NCBI RefSeq assembly: GCF_051903065.1
Contig: NZ_CP178438.1
Strand: one strand, 5' to 3'
Origin: Escherichia coli
GTDB taxonomy: Bacteria > Pseudomonadota > Gammaproteobacteria > Enterobacterales > Enterobacteriaceae
DNA length: 64,000 nt
The notes under the pieces were generated by a model that ran no database searches, was not told the origin of the DNA, and saw only the letters and a list, made by a program, of their open reading frames with translations. Below are positions 22,828 to 60,215 of the stretch, piece after piece (positions within the stretch are counted from its first letter, which is position 1; each line of letters opens with the position of its first letter). The translations under genes and the position numbers were made by a program.

Positions 22828-22956
22828 AACTCCTCCCATAACGGATCAAAGTTGCTACTGGAGATTAAATGAGGTCATCCCTCAATTATTCAAGGTTATT
22901 GACCAGATTAATGTGAAAAGAAAATCACGCGTACCGGATCGTCTTGATTCTTTAGG

Positions 22957-26149: not shown

Positions 26150-26252
26150 TCCTTTATATTGAGTGTATCGCCAACGCGCCTTCGGGCGCGTTTTTTGTTG
26201 ACAGCGTGAAAACAGTACGGGTACTGTACTAAAGTCACTTAAGGAAACAAAC

Positions 26253-26300
26253 ATGAAACACACACCGTTTTTCTTCGCATTCTTTTTTACCTTCCCCTGA
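26253..26300 (+). CDS. pheL: pheA leader peptide (Phe-rich, 15 aa)
   Basis: MKHTPFFFAFFFTFP, seven Phe codons, directly upstream of pheA. Confidence 0.9.
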   Translation: MKHTPFFFAFFFTFP

Positions 26301-26347
26301 ATGGGAGGCGTTTCGTCGTGTGAAACAGAATGCGAAGACGAACAATA

Positions 26348-26377
26348 AGGCCTCCCAAATCGGGGGGCCTTTTTTAT
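26348..26377 (+). terminator. pheA attenuator terminator
   Basis: Hairpin AGGCCTCCC...GGGGGGCCT followed by TTTTTTAT between pheL and pheA. Confidence 0.8.
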
Positions 26378-39373: not shown

Positions 39374-40252
39374 ATGAATAATCATTTCAAGTGTATTGGC
39401 ATTGTGGGACACCCACGGCACCCTACTGCACTGACAACACATGAAATGCTCTACCGCTGGCTGTGCACAAAAGGTTACGAGGTCATCGTTGAGCAACAAA
39501 TCGCTCACGAACTGCAACTGAAGAATGTGAAAACTGGCACGCTCGCGGAGATTGGGCAACTGGCTGATCTCGCGGTAGTCGTTGGTGGCGACGGTAATAT
39601 GCTGGGCGCGGCACGCACACTCGCCCGTTACGATATTAAAATTATTGGAATCAACCGTGGCAACCTGGGTTTCCTGACTGACCTTGACCCCGATAACGCC
39701 CAGCAACAGTTAGCCGATGTGCTGGAAGGCCACTACATCAGCGAGAAACGTTTTTTGCTGGAAGCGCAAGTCTGTCAGCAAGATTGCCAGAAACGCATCA
39801 GCACCGCGATAAATGAAGTGGTACTTCATCCAGGCAAAGTGGCGCATATGATAGAGTTCGAAGTGTATATCGACGAGATCTTTGCGTTTTCTCAGCGATC
39901 TGATGGGCTAATTATTTCGACGCCAACAGGCTCCACCGCCTATTCCCTCTCTGCGGGCGGTCCTATTCTGACCCCCTCTCTGGATGCGATTACCCTGGTG
40001 CCCATGTTCCCGCATACGTTGTCAGCACGACCACTGGTCATAAACAGCAGCAGCACGATCCGTCTGCGTTTTTCGCATCGCCGTAACGACCTGGAAATCA
40101 GTTGCGACAGCCAGATAGCACTGCCGATTCAGGAAGGTGAAGATGTCCTGATTCGTCGCTGTGATTACCATCTGAATCTGATTCATCCGAAAGATTACAG
40201 TTATTTCAATATATTAAGCACCAAGCTCGGCTGGTCAAAAAAATTATTCTAA
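39374..40252 (+). CDS. nadK: NAD kinase
   Basis: 292 aa; GGDG motif ([11 protein letters not shown]). Confidence 0.96.
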
Positions 40253-40259
40253 TTTTACG

Positions 40260-40301
40260 CCAGCCTCTTTACTGTATATAAAACCAGTTTATACTGTACA
40301 C
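40260..40301 (+). promoter_or_regulatory. tandem LexA (SOS) boxes upstream of recN
   Basis: CTGTATATAAAACCAG (40262-40277) and CTGTACACAATAACAG (40284-40299) fit CTGT-N8-ACAG. Confidence 0.85.
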
Positions 40302-40337
40302 AATAACAGTAATGGTTTTTCATACAGGAAAACGACT

Positions 40338-41999
40338 ATGTTGGCACAACTGACCATCAGCAACTTTGCTATCGTTCGTGAGCTTGAGATTGATTTTCAT
40401 AGCGGCATGACCGTAATAACTGGCGAGACCGGCGCGGGTAAATCTATTGCAATAGATGCCCTCGGTCTTTGTCTCGGTGGTCGCGCTGAAGCCGACATGG
40501 TGCGTACCGGCGCTGCTCGCGCTGACCTGTGCGCCCGTTTTTCTCTGAAAGATACGCCAGCGGCTCTGCGCTGGCTGGAAGAAAACCAGCTTGAAGACGG
40601 GCATGAATGTTTGCTTCGTCGCGTGATCAGCAGCGATGGTCGCTCCCGTGGTTTCATCAACGGTACAGCTGTTCCTCTGTCACAACTGCGCGAACTGGGT
40701 CAGTTGCTGATTCAGATCCATGGTCAGCACGCTCATCAGTTACTCACCAAACCCGAGCACCAAAAGTTCCTGCTTGATGGCTATGCCAATGAAACCTCTC
40801 TACTCCAGGAAATGACCGCACGTTATCAGTTGTGGCATCAAAGCTGCCGTGACCTCGCGCATCATCAACAGTTAAGTCAGGAACGCGCCGCCCGTGCGGA
40901 ACTGCTGCAATACCAATTAAAAGAACTTAACGAATTTAATCCGCAGCCCGGAGAGTTTGAGCAAATCGACGAAGAGTACAAACGTCTGGCGAACAGCGGT
41001 CAATTGCTGACCACCAGCCAGAATGCTTTGGCATTAATGGCCGACGGTGAAGACGCAAACCTGCAAAGTCAGCTTTACACGGCTAAACAACTGGTGAGCG
41101 AATTGATTGGCATGGACAGCAAACTGTCCGGCGTACTTGATATGCTGGAAGAAGCTACCATCCAGATTGCTGAAGCCAGCGACGAACTGCGCCACTACTG
41201 CGATCGTTTGGATCTCGATCCCAACCGGCTGTTTGAACTTGAACAACGCATCTCAAAACAGATTTCGCTGGCACGTAAACATCACGTCAGCCCTGAGGCA
41301 TTACCACAGTATTACCAGTCGCTACTGGAAGAACAGCAGCAACTGGACGATCAGGCCGACTCACAAGAAACGCTCGCGCTGGCGGTAACGAAACATCATC
41401 AGCAGGCACTGGAAACCGCGCGCGCATTACACCAACAACGCCAGCAATATGCAGAAGAACTTGCACAGCTGATCACCGACAGTATGCATGCGCTCTCAAT
41501 GCCGCATGGGCAGTTTACGATCGATGTTAAATTTGACGAACATCACCTGGGCGCTGACGGTGCCGATCGTATTGAGTTTCGGGTAACCACCAACCCAGGT
41601 CAGCCAATGCAGCCTATTGCCAAAGTCGCATCCGGTGGTGAATTGTCCCGCATCGCACTGGCAATCCAGGTCATCACAGCGCGTAAAATGGAAACCCCGG
41701 CACTGATTTTTGATGAAGTGGATGTAGGGATTAGCGGTCCAACAGCGGCAGTTGTCGGCAAACTGCTGCGTCAACTCGGCGAATCAACTCAGGTGATGTG
41801 TGTTACCCACCTGCCACAAGTCGCGGGATGTGGTCATCAACACTATTTTGTCAGCAAAGAAACCGATGGTGCGATGACAGAAACGCATATGCAATCTCTG
41901 GATAAAAAAGCGCGGTTACAAGAGCTGGCGCGCCTGCTTGGTGGCAGTGAAGTCACACGTAACACACTGGCGAATGCGAAAGAACTGCTTGCGGCGTAA
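40338..41999 (+). CDS. recN: DNA repair protein RecN (SMC-like)
   Basis: 553 aa; Walker A GETGAGKS, long coiled-coil. Confidence 0.97.
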
Positions 42000-44135: not shown

Positions 44136-44498
44136 GGGGCTGATTCTGGATTCGACGGGATTTGCGAAACCCAAGGTGCATGCCGAGGGGCGGTTGGCCT
44201 CGTAAAAAGCCGCAAAAAATAGTCGCAAACGACGAAAACTACGCTTTAGCAGCTTAATAACCTGCTTAGAGCCCTCTCTCCCTAGCCTCCGCTCTTAGGA
44301 CGGGGATCAAGAGAGGTCAAACCCAAAAGAGATCGCGTGGAAGCCCTGCCTGGGGTTGAAGCGTTAAAACTTAATCAGGCTAGTTTGTTAGTGGCGTGTC
44401 CGTCCGCAGCTGGCAAGCGAATGTAAAGACTGACTAAGCATGTAGTACCGAGGATGTAGGAATTTCGGACGCGGGTTCAACTCCCGCCAGCTCCACCA
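44136..44498 (+). ncRNA. ssrA: tmRNA (transfer-messenger RNA)
   Basis: 363 nt from GGGGCTGATTCTGGATTCGACGGG to ...GGTTCAACTCCCGCCAGCTCCACCA; tag-ORF region present. Confidence 0.97.
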
Positions 44499-44508
44499 AA
44501 TAAATCAA

Positions 44509-44540
44509 GGGGTTACGTGAAAGCGTAGCCCCTTTTTCTT
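44509..44540 (+). terminator. intrinsic terminator downstream of ssrA
   Basis: Hairpin GGGGTTACG...CGTAGCCCC (one G:U) followed by TTTTTCTTT. Confidence 0.7.
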
Positions 44541-44621
44541 TGGTAGTGGCGGCAAAATGGCGACAGACTTTTGCGTCCATCTTGCCTGTCGCCATCTTGA
44601 AATCATGCAAAGAGGTTTCAC

Positions 44622-45104
44622 ATGGAAGAACTTCACTTTGTTTACATCAATGCAAATGGTCGTATCGGTGTTCACTCAATACAGAGCATCAGTTATAGCG
44701 AAAATCATATACAGGGCATTTGTAAGAACACCGATCGAATAAAAACCTTCCGAAAAGACCGCATTCTTAAACAGTACGATTCACCAGAACAAGCCATTCA
44801 GGAATGCGCGTCATTCCTCCCCGAAAACTACTCACATCTCACTAAGCAGTCTGGTCCGAAAAAAAATACATTCGATGTGTGCTTCACCGGATTTAAGAAA
44901 GCAGATAAAGAAAGATTGGTTGATAAGGCGAATGAACAAGGATTAACGGTAAGAACCTCTGTAACCCAAAGCCTTCAGATGCTCTGTTGCGGTTACAATG
45001 CAGGCCCATCAAAAGTATCGGCAGCCAGGATGAAAGGCACAATCATCATAGATGAGCCTGGCTTTATACATTTTCTTGAAACGGGTGAGATCCCAGATGA
45101 ATAA
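44622..45104 (+). CDS. hypothetical prophage cargo protein, WYL-like N-terminal domain plus BRCT-like C-terminal domain
   Basis: 160-aa ORF with AGAGG 10 nt upstream of ATG; N-terminal ...DRIKTFRKDRI resembles the WYL-domain RxFRxDRI strand; C-terminal FDVCFTGF...GLTV...GPSKVSAARMKGTIIIDEPGF resembles the LigA-type BRCT fold pattern. Confidence 0.6.
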   Translation: MEELHFVYINANGRIGVHSIQSISYSENHIQGICKNTDRIKTFRKDRILKQYDSPEQAIQECASFLPENYSHLTKQSGPKKNTFDVCFTGFKKADKERLVDKANEQGLTVRTSVTQSLQMLCCGYNAGPSKVSAARMKGTIIIDEPGFIHFLETGEIPDE

Positions 45105-45107
45105 AAA

Positions 45108-45125
45108 CCTGCCGTAGCAGGTTCT
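45108..45125. terminator. bidirectional terminator between the cargo gene and ogr
   Basis: Hairpin AACCTGC-CGTA-GCAGGTT flanked by A/T runs between convergent stops. Confidence 0.6.
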
Positions 45126-45130
45126 CTTTC

Positions 45131-45349
45131 TCAAAAATTCATATGCCCCTGACCACCTGGCAATGGATGTGGAGGGGCTGTAGCAATCAATGCAGGTGTC
45201 ACAATAAACCGGACCACTGTTTCATGGGTAACAAAAGTGCTCCCGCAGTTAATATTTTGGCACTGGCAGTAACGCTCTTTGGTGCTTTCTGTTACTTGAA
45301 AACTGCTCCTTGTGTGCGCCGCATGACCACACTTCGGACAATTCATCAT
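45131..45349 (-). CDS. ogr: Ogr-type zinc-finger late-gene activator
   Basis: From ATG at 45349 (or 45346): MMNCPKCGHAAHTRSS...KERYCQCQNINCGSTF...PHPLPGGQ matches the P2 Ogr CxxC-N22-CxxxxC pattern; ORF-track GTG extension rejected. Confidence 0.85.
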   Translation of the reverse strand: MMNCPKCGHAAHTRSSFQVTESTKERYCQCQNINCGSTFVTHETVVRFIVTPALIATAPPHPLPGGQGHMNF

Positions 45350-45417
45350 ATCCAGATCCCTACCTTTGCTATCAGAATCATTGTAATGATACACAAAATA
45401 TCAATATTGAGAACACT

Positions 45418-46518
45418 TTATTCCATTTCAAGATCATCAATCTTCACTTCGAGTTCAATACTGGTTGTAAAACCGTTATCCGGGCTGACGGTATGTGTCA
45501 GAGTCGTAATGGTCCATTCCGCATCATCTATCGGCTGTTTAAAGCCACTGACTTTCACTGGCATTTCCGTGTAGAGATCTGCCCGACCTTCCGCCAGTTG
45601 TAGCGAGAATGACGCAACGCCGCGTTGCAGGCGTTCCCACTGCATTTTCGCTGCCCGTTCAGCGTTGCTCCGGTTGGCATAAGTGCGATTAAGTACCAGC
45701 ACGTTTTCATCCGTACCCACCAGGTAATCGCCCTGCTTTGCTTCCGGCTCTTTCTTCTGCTTTGCGGTCCTGCGCTTACGCTTCACCGTGGTGCTTTCTT
45801 TCTTCGCGGGTTCGCGGGTATGCAACCAACTGGCAATTACGCCCGTATAGGCTCCGCGATCTGCCAGGGTAAAGCGGTGACTGTCGCCGTCCTTGCGTGT
45901 GATAGTGATCACCGGCAGAGGTTTACCGCTGGCGCTTTTGCCCTGTCCCTGCCGGATGAATAACAGATTGCCATTTTTCACCGACGCAATAGCACCGTAC
46001 TGGCGCGCCAGCCGCATCAGAAAACTGCCGTCACTCTCATTGGTCTGGTCTATATGTTCCACGGGCTTATCCGACAGGTCTTTACCCAGTGCCATCTTCA
46101 GCTTGTGCCGCGCGGCTATTTCCTTCACCACTTCCCCGACGGTGGTCTTGTGCCACGACTTTTCACGACGGGTATTCAGCGTTTCCCGAAAATCAGCACT
46201 TCGCGCCCGGATAGTCAGGCGGTCCGGTGCGCCAGTGTGTTCAATCTCGTCCACCGTGAATGCCCCTTTAGGGAAAAGCGGCTGCCCCTTCCAGCCCAGC
46301 GCCAGCGTAATGACCGCACCACGGCGCGGCAGCACGATTTTTCCGTCGGCGTCGTCCAGCTCCAGATCAAGCTGGTCCGCTTCAAAGCCCCGATTGTCCG
46401 TCAGAGTCAAACTCATCAGGCGGTTATCCAGCACAGTGGTGATATCCCTGCCCTCAATACTGATGCTGAATGCGGGAGTTTTGTTGCCTTTGTTAAGCAG
46501 TTCAGAGCTGAAATTCAC
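45418..46518 (-). CDS. D: tail protein D (P2 gpD-like)
   Basis: 366 aa at the position downstream of U; overlapping stop/start with U. Confidence 0.8.
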   Translation of the reverse strand: MNFSSELLNKGNKTPAFSISIEGRDITTVLDNRLMSLTLTDNRGFEADQLDLELDDADGKIVLPRRGAVITLALGWKGQPLFPKGAFTVDEIEHTGAPDRLTIRARSADFRETLNTRREKSWHKTTVGEVVKEIAARHKLKMALGKDLSDKPVEHIDQTNESDGSFLMRLARQYGAIASVKNGNLLFIRQGQGKSASGKPLPVITITRKDGDSHRFTLADRGAYTGVIASWLHTREPAKKESTTVKRKRRTAKQKKEPEAKQGDYLVGTDENVLVLNRTYANRSNAERAAKMQWERLQRGVASFSLQLAEGRADLYTEMPVKVSGFKQPIDDAEWTITTLTHTVSPDNGFTTSIELEVKIDDLEME

Positions 46519-47000
46519 GACAGCAGCCCTCCCACCGTTTTACTGATATCACTTAAGGCAGATGTTGCCGTGTCCTGCAGATTATTCAGTTGCGTACTGA
46601 GATCACCGAACATATCGGACAGGGATTCATCCACCCGTTTGAGCGACAGGGTGAACTCAATCCGGCGCGGCATACCGTCGCGGAAAAACTCCGTTTTAGT
46701 CAGATTCAGTCCCTCAATCACATACATGCCGTAAATCGTGCCGCTGCCTTCAATCAGGGGCCATGCTTTTCCCTGTTCTGCCATCTGCTCCAGAGCCAGC
46801 AACGACAGCCTGCCGCCCGTTATCTCCGGCATAAGAACACCAGAAAGCGTCAGCATGTCGTTGTCCGGTCCCAGAAACTGCGTGGACGGACGACGGTTTA
46901 CCCGGCTGTTTGCCGCATGTCGCCAGCTGCGTTGATACTGCAGTTCCTGATACGGAACGGTGCGCAGCATAAACACGTACAATCCCAGCACCATCATCAT
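46515..47000 (-). CDS. U: tail protein U (P2 gpU-like)
   Basis: 161 aa, position and size as P2 gpU; 4-nt overlaps with T and D. Confidence 0.8.
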   Translation of the reverse strand: MMMVLGLYVFMLRTVPYQELQYQRSWRHAANSRVNRRPSTQFLGPDNDMLTLSGVLMPEITGGRLSLLALEQMAEQGKAWPLIEGSGTIYGMYVIEGLNLTKTEFFRDGMPRRIEFTLSLKRVDESLSDMFGDLSTQLNNLQDTATSALSDISKTVGGLLS

Positions 47001-50000
47001 GCGTCGTATCCCCCCTGATCGCTGTAGTTACTCCTGGCTTTTGCCTTCAGCCTGCGTTCACGTTCATCAAGCTGGCGTGCCACCTCCCGCGCAATATCCT
47101 GCGCACTTTGTCCTGGCTGCGTCTGAATGATGATCTGCGTCGGTGCCTCAATCCGGTGAACGGGCGGCACAGTGGCTGCACGACTCACCATCGCTTCGCC
47201 GCCTTTCGCGGGAAGTGCCAAAGGATGCAACGGTGGAAGCTCTGCAGGCGCGGCAGCAACGCCCATCATTCCGGCAACAACGGCAGCCAGTGCAGCTGTA
47301 TTTCTCCGGCTGGTCACATTTGCCGGGCCGTTAACAATTTCCGGCCCGTTTTCACCGACGATGCCAAACTGCCCGCGCGGGATATAGCCGCCGCTGTCAT
47401 ACATCCCCGCAAAGCCATATCCCCATGACGGAAAACCACCCGGTGGCATCATCACTTTACCGTCTGCATTCACCGTCGCAGGTTGCTGACGCGTCACTCT
47501 TTCCGGCAGTTTCGCCTTTGCAGCCTCTTTACTGACAATGCCGAGTTTCTCCAGCAACCAGGAAACGCCGGATTTCAGGGAGTCCAGCGGATGCATGACC
47601 ATATTCAGCCCTTCCGCCAGTGCCTCCCCGAATCGTCGCCCCATTGCCGCTGCGCTCTGCAGTTCGGCAGAGGTCGACTTAACGGGCGTCAGCAGATCAG
47701 TAAACCAGCCCCACAACGCCTGCACTTTGTCGCCAATCCACTGAAACACAGGCTTAAGTGGTTCGAATGCTGCACTGATGGGACCTGCCGCCGCTTTGAA
47801 TCCTTCCACCACACCAGCGAGAAATGCGGTGATGGGTTGCCAGTATTTCCAGACAACCAGCGCCACGCCCGCCAGTGCAGTAACCACAAGACCTATCGGA
47901 CTGAGCAGAGCACCTAACAGACCAGATATGGCATACAGGGCAACGCGCAGCATCGCCAGCGGACCAGATGCAAGCACACGAAGCACCGCGCCTGCGGCAG
48001 CCAGTCCACCGCGCAGTACCGCCAGAGGATTCATAAACATCACAGCAACCGCACGTAAACCGGATAATCCAGACCGCAATAGTGCAACCGGCGCACCTGC
48101 TACAGTTTTCAGGACATTTCCCGTCAGTGATGCCGTACGGCGCAAAGACGACAACGGCGCAGTAAGTAAACCCGCTGCGTTACCCGATGAAGCAAGCCCG
48201 CGTCGCAGCACTGCCAGTGGTGCGCCTGCCAGCCAGGACAAAGCGTTGCTGGTTCGGGTTACTGCTGCCGTAACGGAAGGTAACGTTTTGATACCCAGCA
48301 CAGAGAGTCCCAGACGGATGACTGCCAGCGGCCCCAGCACTGCAGCCAGCGCCACCGCTAAGGTGCCGAGGCCCACGGTAACGGCAGCCACCACTGCGGC
48401 TACTTTCATCAGAGTGCCCGTCAGTTCCGGGTTAGCTTCCACCCAGCGACGCAACGCCCCCGTGACGCTTTTCACCGTGTACAGAATATCCATCAGCGGC
48501 TGGCGCAGCGTTTCGCCCAGGCTGCTGAAGGTGTTCTGTGCTCCGGTTTTGACCAGCAACCACTGAGCAGAAAGTGAGTCTTTGTTGATGTCGGATTCTT
48601 TCTGCATGGAGCCGAGCGCATCATTGCCCGCAGTCAGTTTTAGCTGGCGCTGTAGTTCCGGCAGGTTGTTTGCCAGTTTCGCCGCGTCATCGCCAAACTC
48701 TTTACCAAACAACATGGTCATGGCAGACAGACGCTTATCCTGCGGCAGTGCGTTCACCTTCTCCAGCACACGCTGGATAGTTCCCATCGCATCCTTCGTC
48801 ATCTGCTTTTCAATCACTTCAGGATTGAGTTTCAGCAGATTCATCCCTTCAAAGAAACTCTTGCTTTGCATGGTGGCAATGGACAATTCACGCACCATCG
48901 CGTTTGCTGCACTGGCTGCAACCTCCGGCGCAGCGCCCAGTGTCAGAAAGGTGGAACCCAGTGCCGCAGCTTTACGATAATCCAAACGGTCAGCCACACC
49001 ACCCAGGCGTTGCATGACATCAATAATGTCCGCCCCTTTCGACATGGCGTTATCATCCAGATAGTTCAGCGCATCACCGAGCTGTTCAATATTGCGGGTA
49101 GGGATTTTGTAGAGCTGGGCGATTTTCCCCAGACTTTCTGACAGTTCATCCGCTGGCAGCTCAAAGGCTGTTGCCGCCTTTGCTGCCGTACTGGCGAAGG
49201 CCAGCAGGTCACGTTTCTGGTCCTCCCAGCTGTCGTCAGGGTTTGCGACGTTCATGCGCGCCCCACCTTCAACCAGTGCAGCGAAATCCACCGCACCGTT
49301 TTCCATCGGCAACTGTTCGCTGGCAGCCTTGATGGCATCCTGCATTTCATAAAAACGTGCAGTGGGGTTGCCATTATCGTCACGCAGACCATTGACCTGC
49401 TTTGCCACACCTTTCATGGCATCTTCCATGCTGGTATAGATTTTTACTGCCGCCATCACTGGTGCGCCCATTGCCAGCCCTGCAGCCGTGGTGGTGGCTC
49501 CGGCACCTGCAATACGATCACGCACCTCCAGCGAACGGGCATAACTGGCACGCGCTGCATTCATCCTGCGCTGAGCTTCCCCCAGTCGCTTCAGCCGCGC
49601 CTCCTGTTTCGAAAGTTCCTGGTTATAACGTGATGTTTCACGGGCTAAACGGGCAGTTGCTCCCGCATCATCTTTCGCAGAAATTCCCGCCCGGTACAGT
49701 TCAGCACGCACAAGCGCCGTTTGCTTCTGCAAATATTTTTGTTGTTCTTCCAGGCGTTGGACTGCCAGCGTTTGCCGACCTAAAGCCACAAGATGCCTTT
49801 GTGATGGTTGCTCCATCGCCTCCAGCTCAGAGCTAAGCAAATTAGCCTTCTGTCTGGCATAGTTCAGCCTGTCGCCTAACTTCTTGTTATCAGCCTGCAG
49901 CTTGCGAAATTTTTCCAGGCTGTTACCCGCCTGATTGAGTTGCTTTAATGCGTCACGGGAGTTTCTGATTGCGCCAGCCAGCTCTTTCGAACTGGCCTGT

Positions 50001-50074
50001 GCAGCACGGAATGGGCGGGTGAGTTTGTCAACCGCATTAAGAATGACCTGCAGGCGCAGGTTGTTATCACTCAT
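46997..50074 (-). CDS. T: tail tape-measure protein (P2 gpT-like)
   Basis: 1025 aa, coiled-coil N-terminal part, hydrophobic repeat region, C-terminal Gly-rich part; downstream of E/E'. Confidence 0.88.
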   Translation of the reverse strand: MSDNNLRLQVILNAVDKLTRPFRAAQASSKELAGAIRNSRDALKQLNQAGNSLEKFRKLQADNKKLGDRLNYARQKANLLSSELEAMEQPSQRHLVALGRQTLAVQRLEEQQKYLQKQTALVRAELYRAGISAKDDAGATARLARETSRYNQELSKQEARLKRLGEAQRRMNAARASYARSLEVRDRIAGAGATTTAAGLAMGAPVMAAVKIYTSMEDAMKGVAKQVNGLRDDNGNPTARFYEMQDAIKAASEQLPMENGAVDFAALVEGGARMNVANPDDSWEDQKRDLLAFASTAAKAATAFELPADELSESLGKIAQLYKIPTRNIEQLGDALNYLDDNAMSKGADIIDVMQRLGGVADRLDYRKAAALGSTFLTLGAAPEVAASAANAMVRELSIATMQSKSFFEGMNLLKLNPEVIEKQMTKDAMGTIQRVLEKVNALPQDKRLSAMTMLFGKEFGDDAAKLANNLPELQRQLKLTAGNDALGSMQKESDINKDSLSAQWLLVKTGAQNTFSSLGETLRQPLMDILYTVKSVTGALRRWVEANPELTGTLMKVAAVVAAVTVGLGTLAVALAAVLGPLAVIRLGLSVLGIKTLPSVTAAVTRTSNALSWLAGAPLAVLRRGLASSGNAAGLLTAPLSSLRRTASLTGNVLKTVAGAPVALLRSGLSGLRAVAVMFMNPLAVLRGGLAAAGAVLRVLASGPLAMLRVALYAISGLLGALLSPIGLVVTALAGVALVVWKYWQPITAFLAGVVEGFKAAAGPISAAFEPLKPVFQWIGDKVQALWGWFTDLLTPVKSTSAELQSAAAMGRRFGEALAEGLNMVMHPLDSLKSGVSWLLEKLGIVSKEAAKAKLPERVTRQQPATVNADGKVMMPPGGFPSWGYGFAGMYDSGGYIPRGQFGIVGENGPEIVNGPANVTSRRNTAALAAVVAGMMGVAAAPAELPPLHPLALPAKGGEAMVSRAATVPPVHRIEAPTQIIIQTQPGQSAQDIAREVARQLDERERRLKAKARSNYSDQGGYDA

Positions 50075-50503
50075 CGTTGGCCCCGCATCTCTGAATCGCT
50101 TTATACCGCCATTCCAGCACTTCGGTCAGCGGCATAACGTCAGTAACGGATGGCGGCCAGTGAAAAATGGTGGCGATATCTGCCACCAGATCGTCAACCG
50201 TCAGGCTGTCGGTAAACCGGCAAGTACCGACTTCTTCAACAAAAAAGTGACAACCTCAACCGACATAGCGGTGAGATCTGCCGGGTCCATCTCTGCAATT
50301 TCCTGTGCAGTCAGTGCCGGGCTGGAGATGCGGGGGATCACGGTCATCATCGCGTTCACATCCATATCCATAATGGCCTGCAGGCGTGTACCGCGCAGTG
50401 CACCGGACTGCGGTTTACGCAGCACAATTTCGGTGATTTCCGTTTTACCGCGCTTGATAGGGGTATCCAGTTGAATAGTCTTTTCAGTCTGCTTATCGCT
50501 CAT
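50067..50503 (-). CDS. E': tail assembly chaperone E' (E plus -1 frameshift extension, about 145 aa)
   Basis: -1 frame is open from the slippery site T-TTT-TTG (50246-50240) to a TGA at 50069-50067, overlapping the T start codon by 8 nt. Confidence 0.7.
50201..50503 (-). CDS. E: tail assembly chaperone E (P2 gpE-like)
   Basis: 100-aa ORF between FII and T containing the slippery heptamer near its 3' end. Confidence 0.8.
   Translation of the reverse strand: MSDKQTEKTIQLDTPIKRGKTEITEIVLRKPQSGALRGTRLQAIMDMDVNAMMTVIPRISSPALTAQEIAEMDPADLTAMSVEVVTFLLKKSVLAGLPTA
50240..50246 (-). promoter_or_regulatory. programmed -1 ribosomal frameshift slippery heptamer TTTTTTG
   Basis: Heptamer in X-XXY-YYZ register within E (codons ACT-TTT-TTG). 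Confidence 0.7.
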
Positions 50504-50557
50504 TTTTCTGTCCTGTAAATTGGGTTCTGGCGCGGCATTCCGCGCCGTTCAGATACA

Positions 50558-51073
50558 TCAGAGGCCGAGTGCGTTGCGGTGCGCTTCCATCAGGTCCACA
50601 CCGTCCACAATTTCCACCATGTTGATAAGGTCCACTTCATAGAGCACCTCACCATTGATAGTCAGCTTCGCGTAGCTGTTGGTACTGGTCACTTTGGTGG
50701 TGTTGCTTTCGCCCGTCTTCCACTCGCCGGAATCCACTTCTTTGTGACGTCCACGCACCACAAGCTCCACGGCCTGCACTTCTCCGGTATCGTCACGCTG
50801 GATAGAGCCGGTGAAGCGCAACTGGATGCCATCCACCGTGGCTTTGCCCATCTGTTTAAACAGCAGCAGTTCAGTACCACCAATGGAAAATTCTGTGTCC
50901 AGCGCACTGTCATCAAGCCCCAGATCCACATCCACTGCACCCGGCATTCCGCCGCCGCGATACTTCTCATATTTGCGGGTGAATTTCGGCAGCGTCAGCG
51001 ACTCAACGATCCCCTGCCAGTTGTTCCCGTCATTAAACAGGTTCAGGTGTTTTAATTTGCGTGGTAAAGCCAT
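50558..51073 (-). CDS. FII: tail tube protein (P2 gpFII-like)
   Basis: 171 aa immediately downstream of the sheath gene. Confidence 0.85.
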   Translation of the reverse strand: MALPRKLKHLNLFNDGNNWQGIVESLTLPKFTRKYEKYRGGGMPGAVDVDLGLDDSALDTEFSIGGTELLLFKQMGKATVDGIQLRFTGSIQRDDTGEVQAVELVVRGRHKEVDSGEWKTGESNTTKVTSTNSYAKLTINGEVLYEVDLINMVEIVDGVDLMEAHRNALGL

Positions 51074-51082
51074 GTTGTCCCC

Positions 51083-52255
51083 TTACGCGCTGACCTGGCT
51101 GGAGAAATTCACCAGGTACTGATCGGTGATGCGCTGACGCAGCATCAGGTTTTCAAGTGGCGGCACTGGCGTGTAGTCGTAGTCGATGGTGAGTTTTCCG
51201 GCTTTCAGCGTGTCTTTGTCGTTCACCGACTCATCCAGCCAGCAATCACCACCAATGAGATAGCCCTGACTGACCAGGCTGCGCATTTTGGCGCGGATAC
51301 CCTCGATAATGTCGCGGGCCAGCGACGGATTCAGCGGTTTATCCACCGCCCACATGTGCGCTTCTGCCATCGTGTCCGTCAGCACCTGCGCCGTGCGGGT
51401 GTAGTTTTCGAAGGCAAAGAGCGGGTCATCACTCAGGCAGCGGGAACCCCAGAAGCGAAAACCGTCTTTGCGGATAAGGGTGGTGACGTCGTTCTGGTTC
51501 AGCAGTCCCGCATCGGTTGCCGGGTCCTGCAGATCCCAGAACACATCAGCAGAAATTCCGGTGACACCGTTAACGCCCACGTTGGACAGGCTTTTGTGCC
51601 ATCCGGTCTGCTCGTCAATTTTGGCGCGCAGACCAAGCGCACGGGCGGTGGCATAAGCCGTTGCTTCGGCATTCAGCACCGTGTCCCAGCCAGTAAAGTC
51701 GGGCCAGATCAGCATTCCTTCGCGCTGGCTGAAGTTTTCACGGTAAGTGATCGCCTCCTGTACCGTCTTGCAGCCATACGCTGACAGGTAGGCAAACCCA
51801 CGCAGGCTTTGCGCCACGCTCAGCAACTCAGTAGCAACGGCTTTGTTATCGTGACCTGGCACGCCGAGAATGCGCGGTTTAACGCCGAGCTGTGTCTGGG
51901 CAGATAACAGGGCTTTCATGCCTGTTTTTTTACCTTCAGCAGTCACTGCGCCGATGATATTGGTCGTGGTTTCTTCTTCCGTTTCACCCTGCGGCACACG
52001 CACAACAACGGTCACTGGTTTTGCCTGGTCAGCGATGGCATCCAGCGAACGGGCCAGCGTGCCGGACTCACCCGCTTTACCGCTGGCAGTCAGCACATCA
52101 GTGATCAGCACGGGTTTATTAAGAGGAAACATTTTTGCATCGGCATCATCGCCCGTGCAGACCATACCCACGATGGCGGTGCTCACCGTGGTAATGGATC
52201 GGGTGCCTTCGTTGACTTCAGCAACGCGCACCCCGTGGTGGTAATCCTGAGCCAT
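51083..52255 (-). CDS. FI: contractile tail sheath protein (P2 gpFI-like)
   Basis: 390 aa, sheath-like sequence, first gene of the FI-FII-E-T-U-D operon. Confidence 0.88.
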
Positions 52256-52331
52256 AGTGGCGAACCTCCTGATTGGATTAGGCTTCGCCCTATGTTGAAG
52301 TGATTGTGCCTGACAAACAGCTAAGCACAGT

Positions 52332-52349
52332 TGTGTCGTTATTCACACA
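52332..52349. promoter_or_regulatory. Ogr-box-type dyad TGT-N12-ACA upstream of FI (late promoter candidate)
   Basis: TGTGTGAATAACGACACA on the minus strand, centred about 85 bp upstream of the FI start. Confidence 0.55.
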
Positions 52350-52397
52350 AAATGACGGTATTTGTCCGCTTACAGGAAAAATCAAAATAATACTGAC

Positions 52398-52964
52398 TCA
52401 GGGCGATTCATTGCTCTCATTCGCCGGAAATTTTCTATAAATGGTAGAAACGCCCACATCAAAAATCAGTGCAATACGCTGTCTTGATTCTCCGGCCTCG
52501 AGTAAACGTCCAATCTGTGCCCACTGTTCGGTGGTCAACTTAGGACGGCGTCCACCTACTCTGCCTTTGGCACGAGCTGCAGCCAGCCCTGCTCTGGTAC
52601 GTTCAACTATCAGTTCACGTTCCATTTCAGCCAGAGCCCCCATGACGTGAAAAAAGAAACGGCCCATTGGGGTACTGGTATCAATACTGTCAGTCAGGCT
52701 TCGGAAATTCACACCACGCTGGCGCAACTCTTCTATCAGCGTAACAAGATGCCGCATACTGCGCCCCAGTCTATCCAGCTTCCAGACAACCAGCGTGTCT
52801 CCTGCCGATAGTGTCCTGAGCAGTTTTTTAAGCCCCGGTCTGTCGGACTTAGTGCCACTGATTTTATCCTCAAAAATCCGCTCACATCCCGCGCAGTTCA
52901 GTGCATTACGTTGCAAATCGGTGTTCTGGTCATTTGTTGACACGCGTACATAGCCAATAAGCAT
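52398..52964 (-). CDS. serine DNA invertase (Hin/Gin/Pin family)
   Basis: 188 aa from ATG at 52964: MLIGYVRVSTNDQNTDLQ... with catalytic Ser region and C-terminal HTH (GVSTIYRKF); ORF-track upstream extension rejected. Confidence 0.9.
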   Translation of the reverse strand: MLIGYVRVSTNDQNTDLQRNALNCAGCERIFEDKISGTKSDRPGLKKLLRTLSAGDTLVVWKLDRLGRSMRHLVTLIEELRQRGVNFRSLTDSIDTSTPMGRFFFHVMGALAEMERELIVERTRAGLAAARAKGRVGGRRPKLTTEQWAQIGRLLEAGESRQRIALIFDVGVSTIYRKFPANESNESP

Positions 52965-53019
52965 GATCAATCCCCTGAATAAAAACCGGGGATGATGCCA
53001 GTTAGCCATTATCTCTGCA

Positions 53020-53045
53020 TTTTCTTAAACGTTGGTTTGGGAGAA
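53020..53045. repeat. hix/gix-like 26-bp inversion site (left)
   Basis: TTTTCTTAAACG-TT-GGTTTGGGAGAA; bottom strand reads TTCTCCCAAACC-AA-CGTTTAAGAAAA; shares 14 bp with the right site in inverted orientation. Confidence 0.75.
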
Positions 53046-53468
53046 GGTTCGGCATTACCCGTTGGTGTGCCTGTTCCGTGGCCTTCTGCAATACCGCCTA
53101 CTGGCTGGCTGAAATGTAACGGTGCGGCTTTTTCTGCCGTTGAATATCCTAAACTGGCGAGGGTTTACCCGACAAATAAATTACCTGATTTACGCGGTGA
53201 GTTTATTCGTGGCTGGGATGATGGGCGTGGAGTGGATAGTGGGCGCGCGTTATTATCAACTCAAACAGATGAATTTAAATCACATAGTCATTATTTCGAA
53301 AGAACATGGGCACAAACTGGATTTGATACAACAGGTGGATATTATCTTTTAGCCGCTGATGTTTCTGGCTCAGTAAATCAACAGAGATCCGATAGCACTA
53401 ACTCGGTGGGGGGGAGAGAATCTCGCCCTCGTAATATTGCATTTAACTATATTGTGAGAGCTGTGTAA
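53033..53468 (+). CDS. alternative tail-fibre C-terminal segment, promoterless in this orientation
   Basis: Frame continuous through the left site; encodes GLGEGSALPVGVPVPWP...LPDLRG...SHSHYF...NIAFNYIVRAV, the P2 gpH-type C-terminal pattern. Confidence 0.75.
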
Positions 53469-54073
53469 TGGATAATGCTGTATTAAATAGCGAACATATT
53501 GCTACGAAGGCTGGAAATGTTACTGTTTATAACTTTGACGGTGAAACGCGAGAGTATATTTCCCCATCTATTGAATATATTGCCGTTGGTGTCGGTATTC
53601 CGGCATATTCATGTTTAGATGCTCCTGCCACACGTAAAGATGGTTATGCTATTTGCCGTTCTGCAGGCTTAAACTCATGGGAATATATACCAGACCATCG
53701 CAGTGAAATTGTCTATAGCACTGAAACAGGAGAATCAAAAGAAATCACAGCTCTGGGGGATTACCCTGAAAATACAACCATTATCGCCCCATTAACGCCA
53801 TACGATAAATGGGATGGTGAGAAATGGGTGACGGATACCGAGGCACAGCGTAGCGCCGCAGTAGACGCGGCAGAAGCACAGCGCCAGTCGCTGATTGATG
53901 CTGCTATGGCTTCCATTAGCCTGCTTCAACTGAAATTACAGGCCGGACGGAAGCTGACGCAAGCAGAAACAACCCGACTAAACGCCGTGCTGGATTACAT
54001 TGACGCGGTGATGGCAACGGATACCAGCAACGCGCCGGGGGTTATCTGGCCAGTTCCACCTGAGATGGTTTAA
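53468..54073 (+). CDS. tail-fibre assembly chaperone (Tfa/gpG-like) for the alternative fibre segment
   Basis: 201 aa, start overlaps upstream stop (TAATG); C-terminal pattern ...TDTSNAPGVIWPVPPEMV typical of Tfa proteins. Confidence 0.8.
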   Translation: MDNAVLNSEHIATKAGNVTVYNFDGETREYISPSIEYIAVGVGIPAYSCLDAPATRKDGYAICRSAGLNSWEYIPDHRSEIVYSTETGESKEITALGDYPENTTIIAPLTPYDKWDGEKWVTDTEAQRSAAVDAAEAQRQSLIDAAMASISLLQLKLQAGRKLTQAETTRLNAVLDYIDAVMATDTSNAPGVIWPVPPEMV

Positions 54074-54225
54074 TCTCAATCAGAATGGGTTCGCCCTTCT
54101 CGTTAACAGATATTTCCATTCCTTCAGGGATTTCAGATGCAGTAAAAAACCAGTTATCTTCTGGTAATTCAACAGCCCCGGTCACGTCATGAAGACCGGG
54201 GATTACTTCAGTCAAAGTAACAGGA
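54042..54225 (-). CDS. short ORF downstream of H (possible truncated or non-canonical Tfa); uncertain
   Basis: Only about 61 codons are open after the H stop in this frame and no ATG with a clear RBS is present; the track's 95-aa ORF overlaps H. Confidence 0.25.
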
Positions 54226-55617
54226 TTAAACAGGCGCACAATAAACTCTCCAAGAAAAAGCACTTGTTGATGGTCTTCCGTCGTACATCTGGCAGCGGAC
54301 ATAAAAACCGGTATTAGTGACCTGGTCATCCACGATCATTGAAACGTGAACGTTATTAGATGTGCTCCCGTAATCCGTTCTTATTCTTTCCGCTATGCTG
54401 ATAAAACGTGAAAGCTTAGGTAGCGCAATTGGATAAACGACTTTAGCCAGTCCATTATCATTAGAACCACCCGTTCCAAAGACTTCTATTGCACCATCTG
54501 ACCAGCGTATCCATGCACCATTGGCATTAGCTCCTCGTTGAATGACATATCTGGCTTCTCCCAAACCAAGGTATGCGAGAAGACCAGCTACATCCTTTCC
54601 ACTCAAATTGGTAAGCGTATTGTCCAGCGGTTGTTTACCTGCCAGCGCATTAAGCATTGTCGTGGCAAAGTTCGGATCATTCCCCAGTGCCGCCGCCAGT
54701 TCGTTCAGTGTATCCAGTGCCGCAGGTGCAGAACCCACCATTGCTGCAATCGCTGATTTCACAAAAGCCGTGGTGGCAATCTGTGTATTGTTGACCGACT
54801 GTGCCGCAGTAGGTGCGGTTGGCGTTCCGGTGAGTGCCGGACTCGACAGCGGCGCTTTCAGTGCCAGTGCATTGTTAATGGTGGTACTGAATTTCGGATC
54901 ATTGTTAATGGCTGCGGCTATTTCTTTCAGCGTGTCCAGCGTGGCTGGCGCACCATTAATAAGAGCCGTCAGAGCCGCCTGAACAAACGCGGTGGTCGCA
55001 ATCTGCGTGGTGTTATTCCCTGCTGCTGGCGTTGGCGCTTTGGGTGTCCCGGTAAACGTCGGACTTTCTTTGGGTGCATACTGTGAATGCGGGTCCGGTG
55101 CGGCAAGATGTTTTGCCATCTGATCATCCGCGTACACCTTCAGCTCCAGTGCCTTGTCATCCACATACTTGCGGGTTGCCAGCACTACAGCAGGGTCGAT
55201 TTTCAGGGTGATATTGTCCGTGCTGCTGGTAATCAGCACCATGCGCACGGTCTGAGTGCGCCCGCTACCTTCAGCCAGTTGCGGCTTATAGCTTTCCGGG
55301 CAGTTGCCCACGGCAATCAATGCCTCGGACTCATCAAACAGGCCCACTTCACGAATCCACCAACCGCCCTCGTTTTCAGGGATCACCTGTTCGGCAATAA
55401 TCTGGCTGCTGTTCTGCGGGTCGATATAGAGCATATTCAGCGCAGCCCGGCGTTTCTCATTTACCAGTGCAGTCTGCTTTGAGTCTGGCGTTGGCAATAC
55501 TCCGCCGCCATCGCCGACCGCCATATGGGTAATTTTTAGCGGCACACCGAGCGCGGCGGCGCTGGCAAGTTTCGCCGCGCCAATATCCGTCAGCAGGGTA
55601 TAAAATTTTGTGCTCAT
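54226..55617 (-). CDS. H: tail fibre protein (P2 gpH-like), currently expressed variant
   Basis: 463 aa; conserved N-terminal part, two about 70-aa Ala/Thr-rich repeats, junction ...AYLGLGEA at the right inversion site, then a distinct C-terminal domain ending YCAPV. Confidence 0.88.
   Translation of the reverse strand: MSTKFYTLLTDIGAAKLASAAALGVPLKITHMAVGDGGGVLPTPDSKQTALVNEKRRAALNMLYIDPQNSSQIIAEQVIPENEGGWWIREVGLFDESEALIAVGNCPESYKPQLAEGSGRTQTVRMVLITSSTDNITLKIDPAVVLATRKYVDDKALELKVYADDQMAKHLAAPDPHSQYAPKESPTFTGTPKAPTPAAGNNTTQIATTAFVQAALTALINGAPATLDTLKEIAAAINNDPKFSTTINNALALKAPLSSPALTGTPTAPTAAQSVNNTQIATTAFVKSAIAAMVGSAPAALDTLNELAAALGNDPNFATTMLNALAGKQPLDNTLTNLSGKDVAGLLAYLGLGEARYVIQRGANANGAWIRWSDGAIEVFGTGGSNDNGLAKVVYPIALPKLSRFISIAERIRTDYGSTSNNVHVSMIVDDQVTNTGFYVRCQMYDGRPSTSAFSWRVYCAPV
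54546..54571. repeat. hix/gix-like 26-bp inversion site (right), inside H
   Basis: TTCTCCCAAACC-AA-GGTATGCGAGAA; 12-bp imperfect inverted half-sites around a central AA, close to hixL as recalled. Confidence 0.75.
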
Positions 55618-56219
55618 GGATTCACTCTCATTGTGTCAATAACATGGACCGCCCCGCCTTCATGCGCGGTGCCGCCAGAAATAATTGTTTCGTTGATATA
55701 CGGATAGATCGTGATTTCTTCGCCAAGATAGCTGGCGGCTCCCACCCAATGCGGGCCGCTGGTCTGCAGATTGATGGACATGCCGATCATGTGGCGGCTA
55801 CATGGTTTGGCATCGCTTATCAGTCGCTCAAGTTCCAGATAGGTATCTTCAGTGATGCCCTGGTCCTGCACGCCGATATCCAGGCGAAACGTGCCCGGAG
55901 CCTCTCCGGTCTGCCACCACTCAATAATGCGGATCAGGAATCCGAACGGTTCCACCACCCGCCGCACGGCACTGGTGGTTCCTTTATGCTGATGAATATA
56001 AAAAGCATCCTTCACTACCTGGCGTTTGACGCTTTCTGTCCAGCCCTCGTCCCAGCGATCCACAGAGAACGCCCAGGCGAGATAAGGCAGGAAGCTGACC
56101 GGGCAGGTAGCCGGATTCCACAAGTCACGCAGCGGCACCTGCAGATCAGAAATCCCGCTACAGGTTTGCGCCAGTCGGCGCTCCAGTGAAGTTGAACCCG
56201 GTGGCAGCAGACTATTCAT
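55614..56219 (-). CDS. I: baseplate protein I (P2 gpI-like)
   Basis: 201 aa between J and H, overlapping start/stop on both sides. Confidence 0.8.
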   Translation of the reverse strand: MNSLLPPGSTSLERRLAQTCSGISDLQVPLRDLWNPATCPVSFLPYLAWAFSVDRWDEGWTESVKRQVVKDAFYIHQHKGTTSAVRRVVEPFGFLIRIIEWWQTGEAPGTFRLDIGVQDQGITEDTYLELERLISDAKPCSRHMIGMSINLQTSGPHWVGAASYLGEEITIYPYINETIISGGTAHEGGAVHVIDTMRVNP

Positions 56220-57120
56220 CCGTTCCTCCGTTGGTTACGCTCCACTGCGTACATGATGCCGCCTGTGTTTTGTTCAGGACCACATCCGCCAGAGGAGAAG
56301 CCAGCTCCACACGCTGCACACCCTCAACATGCAGGGCGGCAAAGATGGCGCTACGGCGAATATCCCGACCAAGACGCGTCTGACTGGCGATGTACTTCTG
56401 CAGGCTGGCTTTTGCCGCTGCCATTACCGGCTCTGCTTCCGGTCCCGGATAGAGAAAAATGGTGGCTTCCACGCGATACGGGATGATTTCTGCGCTGCGA
56501 ACCGTCAGACGGTCAGCCACCGGGCGGACGTTCTCACTGTTCAGAGCTTTTTCCACCACGTCCAGCAGGTCTTTTTCTGCAGTTCCATCGCCTTCGCGGC
56601 TAAGGACAGTCAGCACCACCTCTGCAGGTGCCGGGCTGGTTGCACTGGCATCCGCCACCCGACCGTCGGCGCTTCGGGCATGAAATTCATAAGCTGCAGT
56701 TGGCCCCGCAACAGAAAGCCCTTCAAAGGCTGCAGGCACACGCAGGCGTAACGCTTCATCGCTTTCCATCACAGCTGCAACGGGCGGCACAGCATCATTA
56801 TCAGCAGGCGTCACCGTCAGGCGTGTCACGTTGTAGTTGGCAGCGAGCTGGTCAAGATCGCCGCCCATCGCGTAAGCCACCATCACCGCCTGCGCGGCTT
56901 CGTTAATGCGCTGGCGCAGAAGCAACTCACGGTAAGCGTTCTCCTGCAACAATTTAGTGACGGGTTCAGATTCCAGTTCCAGCGTTCGGATCACGGCTTC
57001 CTGCTCATCTTTCGGATGAAGCGCCACAAATTCTGCCTTGCGTTCGGCAAGCAGCGTCTCAAAGTCCGGCACATCCACAATCTGCGGTGCAGGCAACTGC
57101 GAAAGGTCAATCACTGCCAT
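56212..57120 (-). CDS. J: baseplate protein J (P2 gpJ-like)
   Basis: 302 aa from ATG at 57120 (MAVIDLSQLPAPQIV...), matches the gpJ sequence pattern recalled for P2. Confidence 0.88.
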   Translation of the reverse strand: MAVIDLSQLPAPQIVDVPDFETLLAERKAEFVALHPKDEQEAVIRTLELESEPVTKLLQENAYRELLLRQRINEAAQAVMVAYAMGGDLDQLAANYNVTRLTVTPADNDAVPPVAAVMESDEALRLRVPAAFEGLSVAGPTAAYEFHARSADGRVADASATSPAPAEVVLTVLSREGDGTAEKDLLDVVEKALNSENVRPVADRLTVRSAEIIPYRVEATIFLYPGPEAEPVMAAAKASLQKYIASQTRLGRDIRRSAIFAALHVEGVQRVELASPLADVVLNKTQAASCTQWSVTNGGTDE

Positions 57121-57466
57121 TCTCTGCTCCTGTTGATACGGAAAGGGACACAGGCACACCGTTATTCCGCCGCCCGGTCAGCTCCACCACCATAGAACCG
57201 TCAAAGTTGCTGTTGATGGTGATGGAATCCAGCGTCAGCCGTGGCTCCCAGCGACTCAGCGCCACATACACTGCCGACATGACCTGCAGGCGTAATGCCG
57301 GATTTTGTGGCTGATCTATTAAAACCGACAGGAGGGAACCATATTCCCGGCGGGCAATACGGCTACCCTGCGGTGTCAGCAGAATGTCCCGCACCGACTG
57401 GCGCAGATGATCAATATCAGTAATGACTTTGCCGCTGGTATTGTTCATCCCGCTATAAAGCGTCAT
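57107..57466 (-). CDS. W: baseplate protein W (P2 gpW-like)
   Basis: About 115-119 aa, motif SRWEPRLTL; position between V and J. Confidence 0.85.
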   Translation of the reverse strand: MTLYSGMNNTSGKVITDIDHLRQSVRDILLTPQGSRIARREYGSLLSVLIDQPQNPALRLQVMSAVYVALSRWEPRLTLDSITINSNFDGSMVVELTGRRNNGVPVSLSVSTGAENGSD

Positions 57467-58041
57467 ACCGGGCCTCCGGTTGTATCGCCGCCTTTCAGGA
57501 CGCCAGTATGCTGATGCGCATCAACCACGATCCCGTTAGAACTCATCGCTCCGCCGCCCTGGGTAACGCCACCATTGATCACCACTTCGCTGTTAATGCG
57601 CGTGCGGTCAGCCTCCAGTACAAACTCACTGGTTTTCATGGTGATGTTGTCAGCAGCCTCAATGACCATTGATTTGATGCCCCTGACATACCAGCGCCCG
57701 GTGGCGGGTTCGTATTCAAACCAGCCACCGTCAGGATGTTCTGTCACGCAGGCGTCCGCCGACGTCGACGGTGGTGCGAACTGATTCGAATAGACAGCGG
57801 GCAGCGCAAAGGCGGTTTCCAGATTGCCGCCCAGACTCAGCAGCACCACCTGCTCACCTTCCGATGGTCGCCACCATGTACGGGCATTCCCGGCACGCAG
57901 CGTCAGCCAGCTGATCCAGTTGGTTTCAAGCTCGCCCGTTTTCACCCGGCAAAGCCAGTTTTCCCTGTCCACTTCGGTGACTACCCCTGTGCGGATCAGG
58001 TTGGTGATAAGGCGCATGATTTCGGTTAATTGTGCGTTCAT
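57463..58041 (-). CDS. V: baseplate spike/assembly protein V (P2 gpV-like)
   Basis: 192 aa; first gene downstream of a TGT-N12-ACA dyad. Confidence 0.82.
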   Translation of the reverse strand: MNAQLTEIMRLITNLIRTGVVTEVDRENWLCRVKTGELETNWISWLTLRAGNARTWWRPSEGEQVVLLSLGGNLETAFALPAVYSNQFAPPSTSADACVTEHPDGGWFEYEPATGRWYVRGIKSMVIEAADNITMKTSEFVLEADRTRINSEVVINGGVTQGGGAMSSNGIVVDAHQHTGVLKGGDTTGGPV

Positions 58042-58087
58042 AGGGAAAGGTTGCCATCAGGGGAAGAAAGGCGGCAATGCTGCAACT

Positions 58088-58105
58088 TGTATCAGTGCTG
58101 ATACA
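58088..58105. promoter_or_regulatory. Ogr-box-type dyad TGT-N12-ACA upstream of V (late promoter candidate)
   Basis: TTGTATCAG-TGCTGA-TACAA; extended perfect 9-bp inverted arms; centred about 55 bp upstream of the V start. Confidence 0.6.
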
Positions 58106-58109
58106 AAGA

Positions 58110-58556
58110 TCACCCCGCCAGCCATTGCAGAATCATGTCACGGGTCATTGCCTCAACATCATCATTTACACCCAGAAGGCGACGCTCTGCGTAACGCACC
58201 TCCGGTCCCTTACGACTGACGCGATCTCGCAGGCCGTAATGGTGAACGCGGGCAATGCGCTGCACCTTGCCTTCAAACTGCACGCTGGCAGAGTCGGTGC
58301 TGGCGGCAGTTTTCAGGTATTTTGTGGTGCGCAGCTTTGCAAACATCTGACGTTTGATACGGCCTTTTTTACTGCGTGCTGTTACCCGTCGCGGTTCATA
58401 GCTGCTGCCGTCAGGGTTGCGCTGCATCCTGATATTCTGCTGCTGTGTCCGGCGAAGTTCCTGCGCCAGCTGGCGCATCATGCGGCTTCTCGTGGCTGGT
58501 TCCAGATTCGCCAGCAAGGCACTCAGCCAGTCGTCCACCTTCTGCAGTTCAGCCAC
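58110..58556 (-). CDS. S: tail completion protein S (P2 gpS-like)
   Basis: 148 aa; position and size. Confidence 0.78.
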   Translation of the reverse strand: MAELQKVDDWLSALLANLEPATRSRMMRQLAQELRRTQQQNIRMQRNPDGSSYEPRRVTARSKKGRIKRQMFAKLRTTKYLKTAASTDSASVQFEGKVQRIARVHHYGLRDRVSRKGPEVRYAERRLLGVNDDVEAMTRDMILQWLAG

Positions 58557-59001: not shown

Positions 59002-59233
59002 TAATCATGTCCACTTTGTCTGCACAGACCGCCCAGGCGGCCTCCGTTTCATCCAGCAACGCGTTCAGATCACCGTTAGTGTGCGGCGCTGTCTGATCCA
59101 GCCGACACGGCGTCACTCGCGGACAGCCACTGACGGTAAGCTGCACCTCCGGTGAATGCCGGGCGTTTCCGCAGCCGGATAATGTCAGCAGGCAAAGGAG
59201 TATCAGCCCAGCGGCGTAAATCCTCGTTCTCAC
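58943..59233 (-). CDS. lysC: outer-membrane spanin lipoprotein (LysC/Rz1-like), embedded in lysB in another frame
   Basis: Lipobox LLTLSGC, Pro-rich mature part; starts within lysB and runs into R. Confidence 0.6.
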   Translation of the reverse strand: MRTRIYAAGLILLCLLTLSGCGNARHSPEVQLTVSGCPRVTPCRLDQTAPHTNGDLNALLDETEAAWAVCADKVDMIIACQERNSEQTTIPAPRTQ

Positions 59234-60212: not shown

Positions 60213-60215
60213 AAT

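Follow-up and report, generated by a model that had tools for sequence, protein, structure and literature searches.

A three-box SOS operator upstream of recN in Escherichia coli

The short intergenic region between nadK and recN on the Escherichia coli chromosome raises the question of how many LexA-binding sites precede recN, how strong each of them is and how they are placed over the promoter. A preliminary description of the DNA analysed here, a stretch of 64,000 nucleotides referred to below as the window, had placed tandem SOS boxes directly upstream of this gene. That claim is correct in substance and slightly wrong in its coordinates and in the spelling of the motif. The site is almost certainly the SOS operator of E. 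coli recN, comprising three LexA-binding sites. The sites, their scores, their placement relative to a predicted promoter and their conservation were computed, and the dependence on LexA and the size of the induction are taken from the literature.

The open reading frame that follows the region (40338..41999, plus strand) encodes a protein of 553 amino acids, the translation of which scores above the cut-offs of two RecN equivalog models, NF008121 (1070.5 bits; cut-off 418) and TIGR00634 (576.9 bits; cut-off 407.85), each matched over residues 1-553. The initial assignment of this frame to recN is confirmed by the full-length match to NF008121 and by identical annotated chromosomes: the 301 nt around the boxes share 100% identity with many complete E. 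coli chromosomes annotated with nadK and recN at this place, and were found in 5425 of 5426 E. coli genomes. The upstream neighbor is the NAD kinase gene nadK (39374..40252, plus strand), an open reading frame that matches NCBIfam NF002893 with 565 bits, above the curated cut-off, and is annotated nadK in the identical E. coli records. At its stop codon begins a spacer of 85 nt (40253-40337) that holds all three boxes. The gene order at the locus is ypjD-yfjD-grpE-nadK-recN-bamE-yfjF-ratA-smpB.

In E. coli, recN is described as carrying three SOS boxes (PMC10714372; PMC3323433), as being tightly controlled by LexA and as encoding a protein turned over by ClpXP (PMC10714372). Tight LexA control, which had been proposed for this locus, agrees with that account (PMC10714372) and with the 128-fold rise of recN in a lexA-defective strain; mitomycin C raises it about 100-fold (PMC12211044). 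In response to ciprofloxacin, recN mRNA increases by log2 4.6 and RecN protein by log2 6.8 (PMC11002266), and the gene is among the most strongly induced of the SOS response at the level of both RNA and protein (PMC11002266; PMC3009722). It also ranks among the top UV-induced genes in a study that prints box 1 verbatim as the LexA motif of recN (PMC3009722). Direct binding of LexA at recN is credited by later papers (PMC10714372) to Rostas et al. (1987; Nucleic Acids Res 15:5041), a second-hand attribution. A literature search for a ChIP study of E. coli LexA returned nothing relevant.

Degradation of RecN by ClpXP proceeds through C-terminal signals (PMC10714372). The C-terminus encoded in the window, KELLAA (41976-41999), resembles the terminal part of the ssrA degradation tag. 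This tag, ANDENYALAA, is encoded by the tmRNA gene, which is found in the same window 2 kb downstream of recN (44136-44498).

The three boxes, to which no strand is assigned, are packed within 60 bp (40270-40329) as sites of 20 bp each. Box 1 (40270-40289) reads TACTGTATATAAAACCAGTT, with the core CTGTATATAAAACCAG at 40272-40287; box 2 (40292-40311) reads TACTGTACACAATAACAGTA, with the core CTGTACACAATAACAG at 40294-40309; and box 3 (40310-40329) reads TAATGGTTTTTCATACAGGA, with its core at 40312-40327. Their centers are 22 bp apart for boxes 1 and 2 and 18 bp apart for boxes 2 and 3, the 20-mers of the latter pair overlapping by 2 bp, and from the ends of the boxes to the recN ATG there are 48, 26, and 8 nt. 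Boxes 1 and 2 were also detected as a direct repeat with 22-bp spacing. Both fit a CTG-N10-CAG core within the 20-bp consensus TACTG(TA)5CAGTA, and box 3 fits in part: its arms are ATG and CAG, A replacing the C of the CTG arm, so that one arm is imperfect.

The preliminary description had spoken of two strong CTGT-N8-ACAG elements in the interval 40260-40301, followed by a possible third, weaker box. The spelling holds exactly for box 2, the core of which is one of only three such matches in the window (0.87 expected), but the core of box 1 is CTGT-N8-CCAG, which fits CTG-N10-CAG and not CTGT-N8-ACAG. Box 1 falls entirely within the interval, box 2 only with its left half, and the weaker third box is indeed present, though wholly outside it. 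The loose core CTG-N10-CAG occurs 30 times in the window against 16.8 expected from dinucleotide shuffles; by itself it is a poor discriminator and proves little. In our explanation, this excess probably stems from the high frequency of the trinucleotides CTG and CAG.

A more demanding measure is a symmetrised log-odds matrix built from 17 E. coli LexA sites, recN excluded, that lie upstream of UV-induced genes and were trimmed to 20 bp (PMC3009722, Table 4). The whole window was scanned with it (63,981 positions). Scoring against a LexA matrix had been suggested as the check on the boxes, with low scores as the outcome that would count against them; instead, box 1 (25.55 bits), box 2 (18.07 bits), and box 3 (13.54 bits) took ranks 1, 2, and 3 of the 63,981. 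The exact score distribution gives per-position probabilities of 1.3e-9, 3.6e-7, and 4.2e-6, and sites scoring at least as high are expected by chance 8.6e-5, 0.023, and 0.27 times per 64 kb, for boxes 1, 2, and 3, respectively. Among 200 first-order Markov simulations of 64 kb each, a score of 18.07 bits was attained in 3 and one of 13.54 bits in 33. It serves as a positive control that a matrix derived from published sites gives its three highest scores in 64 kb to exactly the recN boxes.

The leave-one-out scores of the training sites, which range from 4.5 to 28.7 bits with a median of 19.9, provide the scale on which box 1 is strong, box 2 is average, and box 3, on a par with dinG and dinB, stands at the low end of the accepted range. 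The heterology indices computed here are 4.2, 9.1, and 11.7 for boxes 1, 2, and 3; the published indices for recN are reportedly about 5.2, 9.4, and 11.5, the present set having been computed from a smaller training set. All three computed values are below 15, the customary cut-off (PMC11002266).

No other convincing LexA site was found by the matrix scan of the 63,981 positions, including the part of a P2-like prophage that the window covers. Rank 4 falls to 12.2 bits, at 4135-4154, and chance alone would yield about 0.5 such sites per 64 kb. This sequence, TACTGTCTACCAAAACAGAG, is an exact CTGT-N8-ACAG with a heterology index of 12.8. It is situated 10 nt before the GTG of a cysteine/O-acetylserine exporter gene (4165-4752; NF007653), overlapping the exporter ribosome-binding site, in a divergent spacer shared with a gene for a LysR-family regulator (3181-4107, minus strand). 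It may be meaningless or may represent a palindrome bound by the LysR protein itself.

Directly after the tmRNA gene, 44500-64000 is occupied by the prophage, a member of the P2 family with genes for tail, baseplate, capsid, and tape-measure proteins. Escherichia phages 500465-1 and Cartapus match 89-96% of the stretch at about 96% identity, and within the window no LexA-matrix match in the prophage exceeds 8.1 bits. An open reading frame of 160 amino acids (44622-45104), located after the tmRNA gene and before the prophage late genes, has only weak matches, far below cut-offs, to the C-terminal region of NAD-dependent DNA ligase (E = 2e-4) and of a DEDDh exonuclease (4e-6); it may be a phage cargo gene. 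Ordinary landmarks of the window are an rRNA operon with tRNA-Glu in its spacer (14811-19810, minus strand) and a phenylalanine leader (26252-26377). The small RNA RyfD (22808-22946) adjoins a long minus-strand open reading frame of 861 amino acids (20254-22839).

The boxes had further been said to overlap the recN promoter, and all three do lie over the predicted promoter region, from the -35 hexamer through the -10 hexamer and the start region to the leader and its ribosome-binding site. A consensus scan of the plus strand yields a single sigma-70-like match in the spacer, TTTACT and TATACT separated by 16 nt. The predicted -35 hexamer TTTACT (40268..40273) shares its last four bases with the first four of box 1, and the predicted -10 hexamer TATACT (40290..40295) shares its last four with the first four of box 2. 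Box 1 consequently fills the predicted -35/-10 spacer and overlaps the -35 hexamer, and box 2 covers the predicted -10 hexamer together with the likely transcription start near 40302. Counted from that putative start, box 3 occupies about +9 to +28 of the leader, and its right arm contains the Shine-Dalgarno sequence AGGA of recN (40326..40329, plus strand), which can be read directly from the DNA 8 nt before the ATG and is at least 90% conserved.

An alternative promoter seen by eye, TTTACG (40254-40259) and TATAAA (40277-40282) separated by 17 nt, was judged unlikely because its -35 element falls in the poorly conserved part of the spacer and its -10 element is without the final T. Further upstream, an inverted repeat, GGCTGGTCAAAAA / TTTTACGCCAGCC (40229-40265), spans the nadK stop codon and is not followed by a T-run. 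Nor was a terminator-like site called in the interval from nadK to recN. With both the T-run and such a call absent, the sequence does not show how nadK transcription would end ahead of the recN operator.

Conservation was assessed in 120 recN loci of other gammaproteobacteria, drawn from species-representative genomes and retrieved with a degenerate pattern that lies wholly within the first 14 codons of recN. As the pattern is confined to the coding N-terminus, the retrieval is unbiased by the boxes; RecN N-termini are encoded at 120 of the 120 loci. At least one LexA-type box lies within about 100 nt of the ATG in all of them except two with insertions. The commonest layout, found at 37 loci in addition to the window itself, places the boxes 48, 26, and 8 nt before the ATG, and variants displaced by one or two bases (46/24/6 and 49/27/9) also occur. 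In Pasteurellaceae, Alteromonadales, and Tolumonas, the number of boxes is one or two and their distances are different.

When 83 unique upstream regions of the Enterobacterales type are aligned, a conserved island emerges at 40267-40331 that corresponds to the promoter and the three boxes; the adjacent 40253-40266 are poorly conserved. Within the island, the arms contacted by LexA are at least 90% conserved, and so are the two predicted hexamers, including their bases outside the boxes, TT at 40268-40269 and TA at 40290-40291. Box 1 is nearly invariant across Enterobacterales. Among 84 unique related loci, a box of at least 13.5 bits stands at +22 from box 1 in 65, and the median slot scores are 24.3, 19.3, and 9.3 bits for boxes 1, 2, and 3.

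Some recN leaders have been enlarged. In Xenorhabdus mauleonii (L098, 5245-5318) and also in X. ehlersii (L074), the leader contains tandem 19-nt units (ACGTTTTTTTATAAAAGCA-like), present in about three or more copies according to Tandem Repeats Finder and resembling the box 3 unit by eye. The array displaces boxes 1 and 2 to 172 and 150 nt from the ATG in the former species and to 94 and 72 nt in the latter. In Cedecea neteri (L091), an insertion of about 125 nt, located about 20-145 nt upstream of recN, splits the third box: it separates box 2 from the right arm of box 3, which is retained (TTCATACAGGA). This insertion is reminiscent of an enterobacterial repetitive intergenic (ERIC) element; when the Cedecea locus was scanned against Rfam, no match naming it was obtained.

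A different deviation is found in Erwinia, Pantoea, and Mixta (L023, L035, L037, L039, L043, L050, L072, L073, L087, L090, L092, L109, and L117). In these genera, the middle box is without its right arm (TACTGTATGAAAAACCATAT) and scores a median of 11.2 bits versus 20.3 elsewhere, and the leader box is a proper CTGT-N8-ACAG with a median of 12.4 versus 9.3 bits, reaching up to 19. It can tentatively be proposed that a scaffold of three slots (0, +22, and +40) is fixed across Enterobacterales and that the slots holding the strong sites have changed. If this were true, the weak box 3 of E. coli would be no relic but a maintained functional slot that serves as a roadblock downstream or as a helper site. 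Because the shift is confined to one clade, it may represent a single evolutionary event. The strengths of boxes 2 and 3 are negatively correlated overall (Spearman -0.24, p = 0.03), but a general compensation between the two was rejected, as the coefficient falls to -0.006 without Erwinia, Pantoea, and Mixta, which indicates a clade effect rather than a rule.

Other explanations of the region concern the boxes as a set, box 3, and the RNA. The intergenic DNA is AT-rich and CTG-N10-CAG is common in the window, so the boxes might be viewed as chance palindromes, or as the site of another regulator, unconnected to LexA. This view is refuted by the matrix scores and the conservation and has next to no probability: even under the AT-rich composition of the 85-nt spacer itself, only 1e-6, 1.3e-4, and 1.2e-3 sites as good as boxes 1, 2, and 3 are expected, the top three scores of 64 kb are all found within 60 bp, conservation across the order falls on exactly the LexA-contact arms, and recN is derepressed in lexA mutants (PMC12211044). 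The analysis produced no evidence against boxes 1 and 2 as LexA sites. It could still be argued that only these two work and that box 3 is a look-alike, conserved for the ribosome-binding site or the leader and not for LexA. Its 13.5 bits correspond to a chance expectation of 0.27 per 64 kb, the median of its slot across relatives is low, and its conserved ACAGGA includes the Shine-Dalgarno AGGA, so conservation could be partly translational. In addition, the Salmonella equivalent was missed by FIMO and added by hand by the authors (PMC8072944). However, the TG of its left arm lies outside the ribosome-binding site and is at least 90% conserved at an exact 10-nt spacing from the CAG. The skeleton nnnTGTnnnnnnnTACAGGA is retained at a fixed offset of +40 from box 1 in 74 of the 84 loci while the surrounding bases turn over, and the slot reaches at least 9 bits in 62 of them, against 0.001 per position further upstream. 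The full CTGT-N8-ACAG of Erwinia, Pantoea, and Mixta stands at this very position, and box 3 is counted as a LexA site in the literature (PMC8072944; PMC10714372; PMC3323433). A mere look-alike is thus unlikely, although it keeps a certain weight.

The nested dyad could also act at the level of RNA. Transcripts reading through from nadK would fold back, the arm of box 1 pairing with that of box 3 and the Shine-Dalgarno sequence, which seems very improbable; equally improbable is the corollary that read-through transcripts would hide the recN ribosome-binding site while those started at the promoter, being without the 5' arm, would be translated. Several features invite the idea: boxes 1 and 3 form an inverted repeat (40268-40286 / 40313-40331) that is 84% complementary over 19 nt with the palindromic box 2 in between, a 101-nt RNA folds at -24.6 kcal/mol (z = -3.77 versus shuffles), and terminator-like sites are absent between the two genes. 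Yet partition-function calculations in 83 species give median Shine-Dalgarno-to-AUG accessibilities of 0.38 for the long form, 0.40 for the promoter-started form, and 0.40 for the long form with shuffled upstream sequence. Accessibility is lower in the long form in only 43 of the 83 species, and in E. coli it is higher (0.45 versus 0.35). Hiding of the ribosome-binding site was rejected since no effect on accessibility appears across the 83 species. The complementarity of boxes 1 and 3 follows from the fact that the three sites each match one palindromic consensus.

With the region read as a LexA operator, a mode of action can be proposed. Without DNA damage, LexA dimers would sit on boxes 1 and 2 and exclude RNA polymerase from the promoter, and a third dimer, bound at box 3 shortly past the start, could add occupancy or block a polymerase that does start. 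Upon DNA damage, RecA on single-stranded DNA would provoke LexA to cleave itself, and the pool of free LexA would fall. The emptied sites would then permit transcription of recN at a high rate from a strong promoter. Where a good promoter carries several sites, basal expression would be expected to be very low and the induction ratio very large. In this scheme, we infer where exactly transcription begins, what each box contributes on its own, and any cooperativity between neighboring dimers.

Since 1987, the recN operator has served as a standard example of repression by LexA at multiple sites, and its promoter is in routine use as an SOS reporter. An operator with three boxes is already known for this gene, and the one in the window is real but ordinary. 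It is the same locus as the E. coli K-12 recN operator (Rostas et al., 1987), for which later compilations of SOS boxes list three, with a spacer that is 100% identical to that of many E. coli genomes and no detectable difference. In the recN operator of Salmonella enterica, too, there are three boxes; they end 8, 26, and 48 bp from the ATG, exactly the positions seen in the window, and the gene is strongly damage-induced, with 39-fold induction by nalidixic acid (PMC8072944). The order of strength differs: the lowest heterology index belongs to the Salmonella box at 26 bp (7.72 versus 8.82 at 48 bp), whereas E. coli has its strongest box at 48 bp.

Repression is similarly deepened by several LexA dimers at the lexA promoter, which has two boxes, and at colicin promoters, which have two overlapping boxes. 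In contrast to these, recN combines three sites at spacings of 22 and 18 bp, with 20-mers of boxes 2 and 3 that share 2 bp. The sequence of box 1 is close to that of the colicin E1 box, and cooperativity has reportedly been demonstrated for colicin operators. The single-box operators of recA, sulA, umuDC, and uvrB, which form part of the matrix training set, have the same CTG-N10-CAG and the same derepression by LexA cleavage, but unlike recN they offer one site, and one repressor dimer, per promoter.
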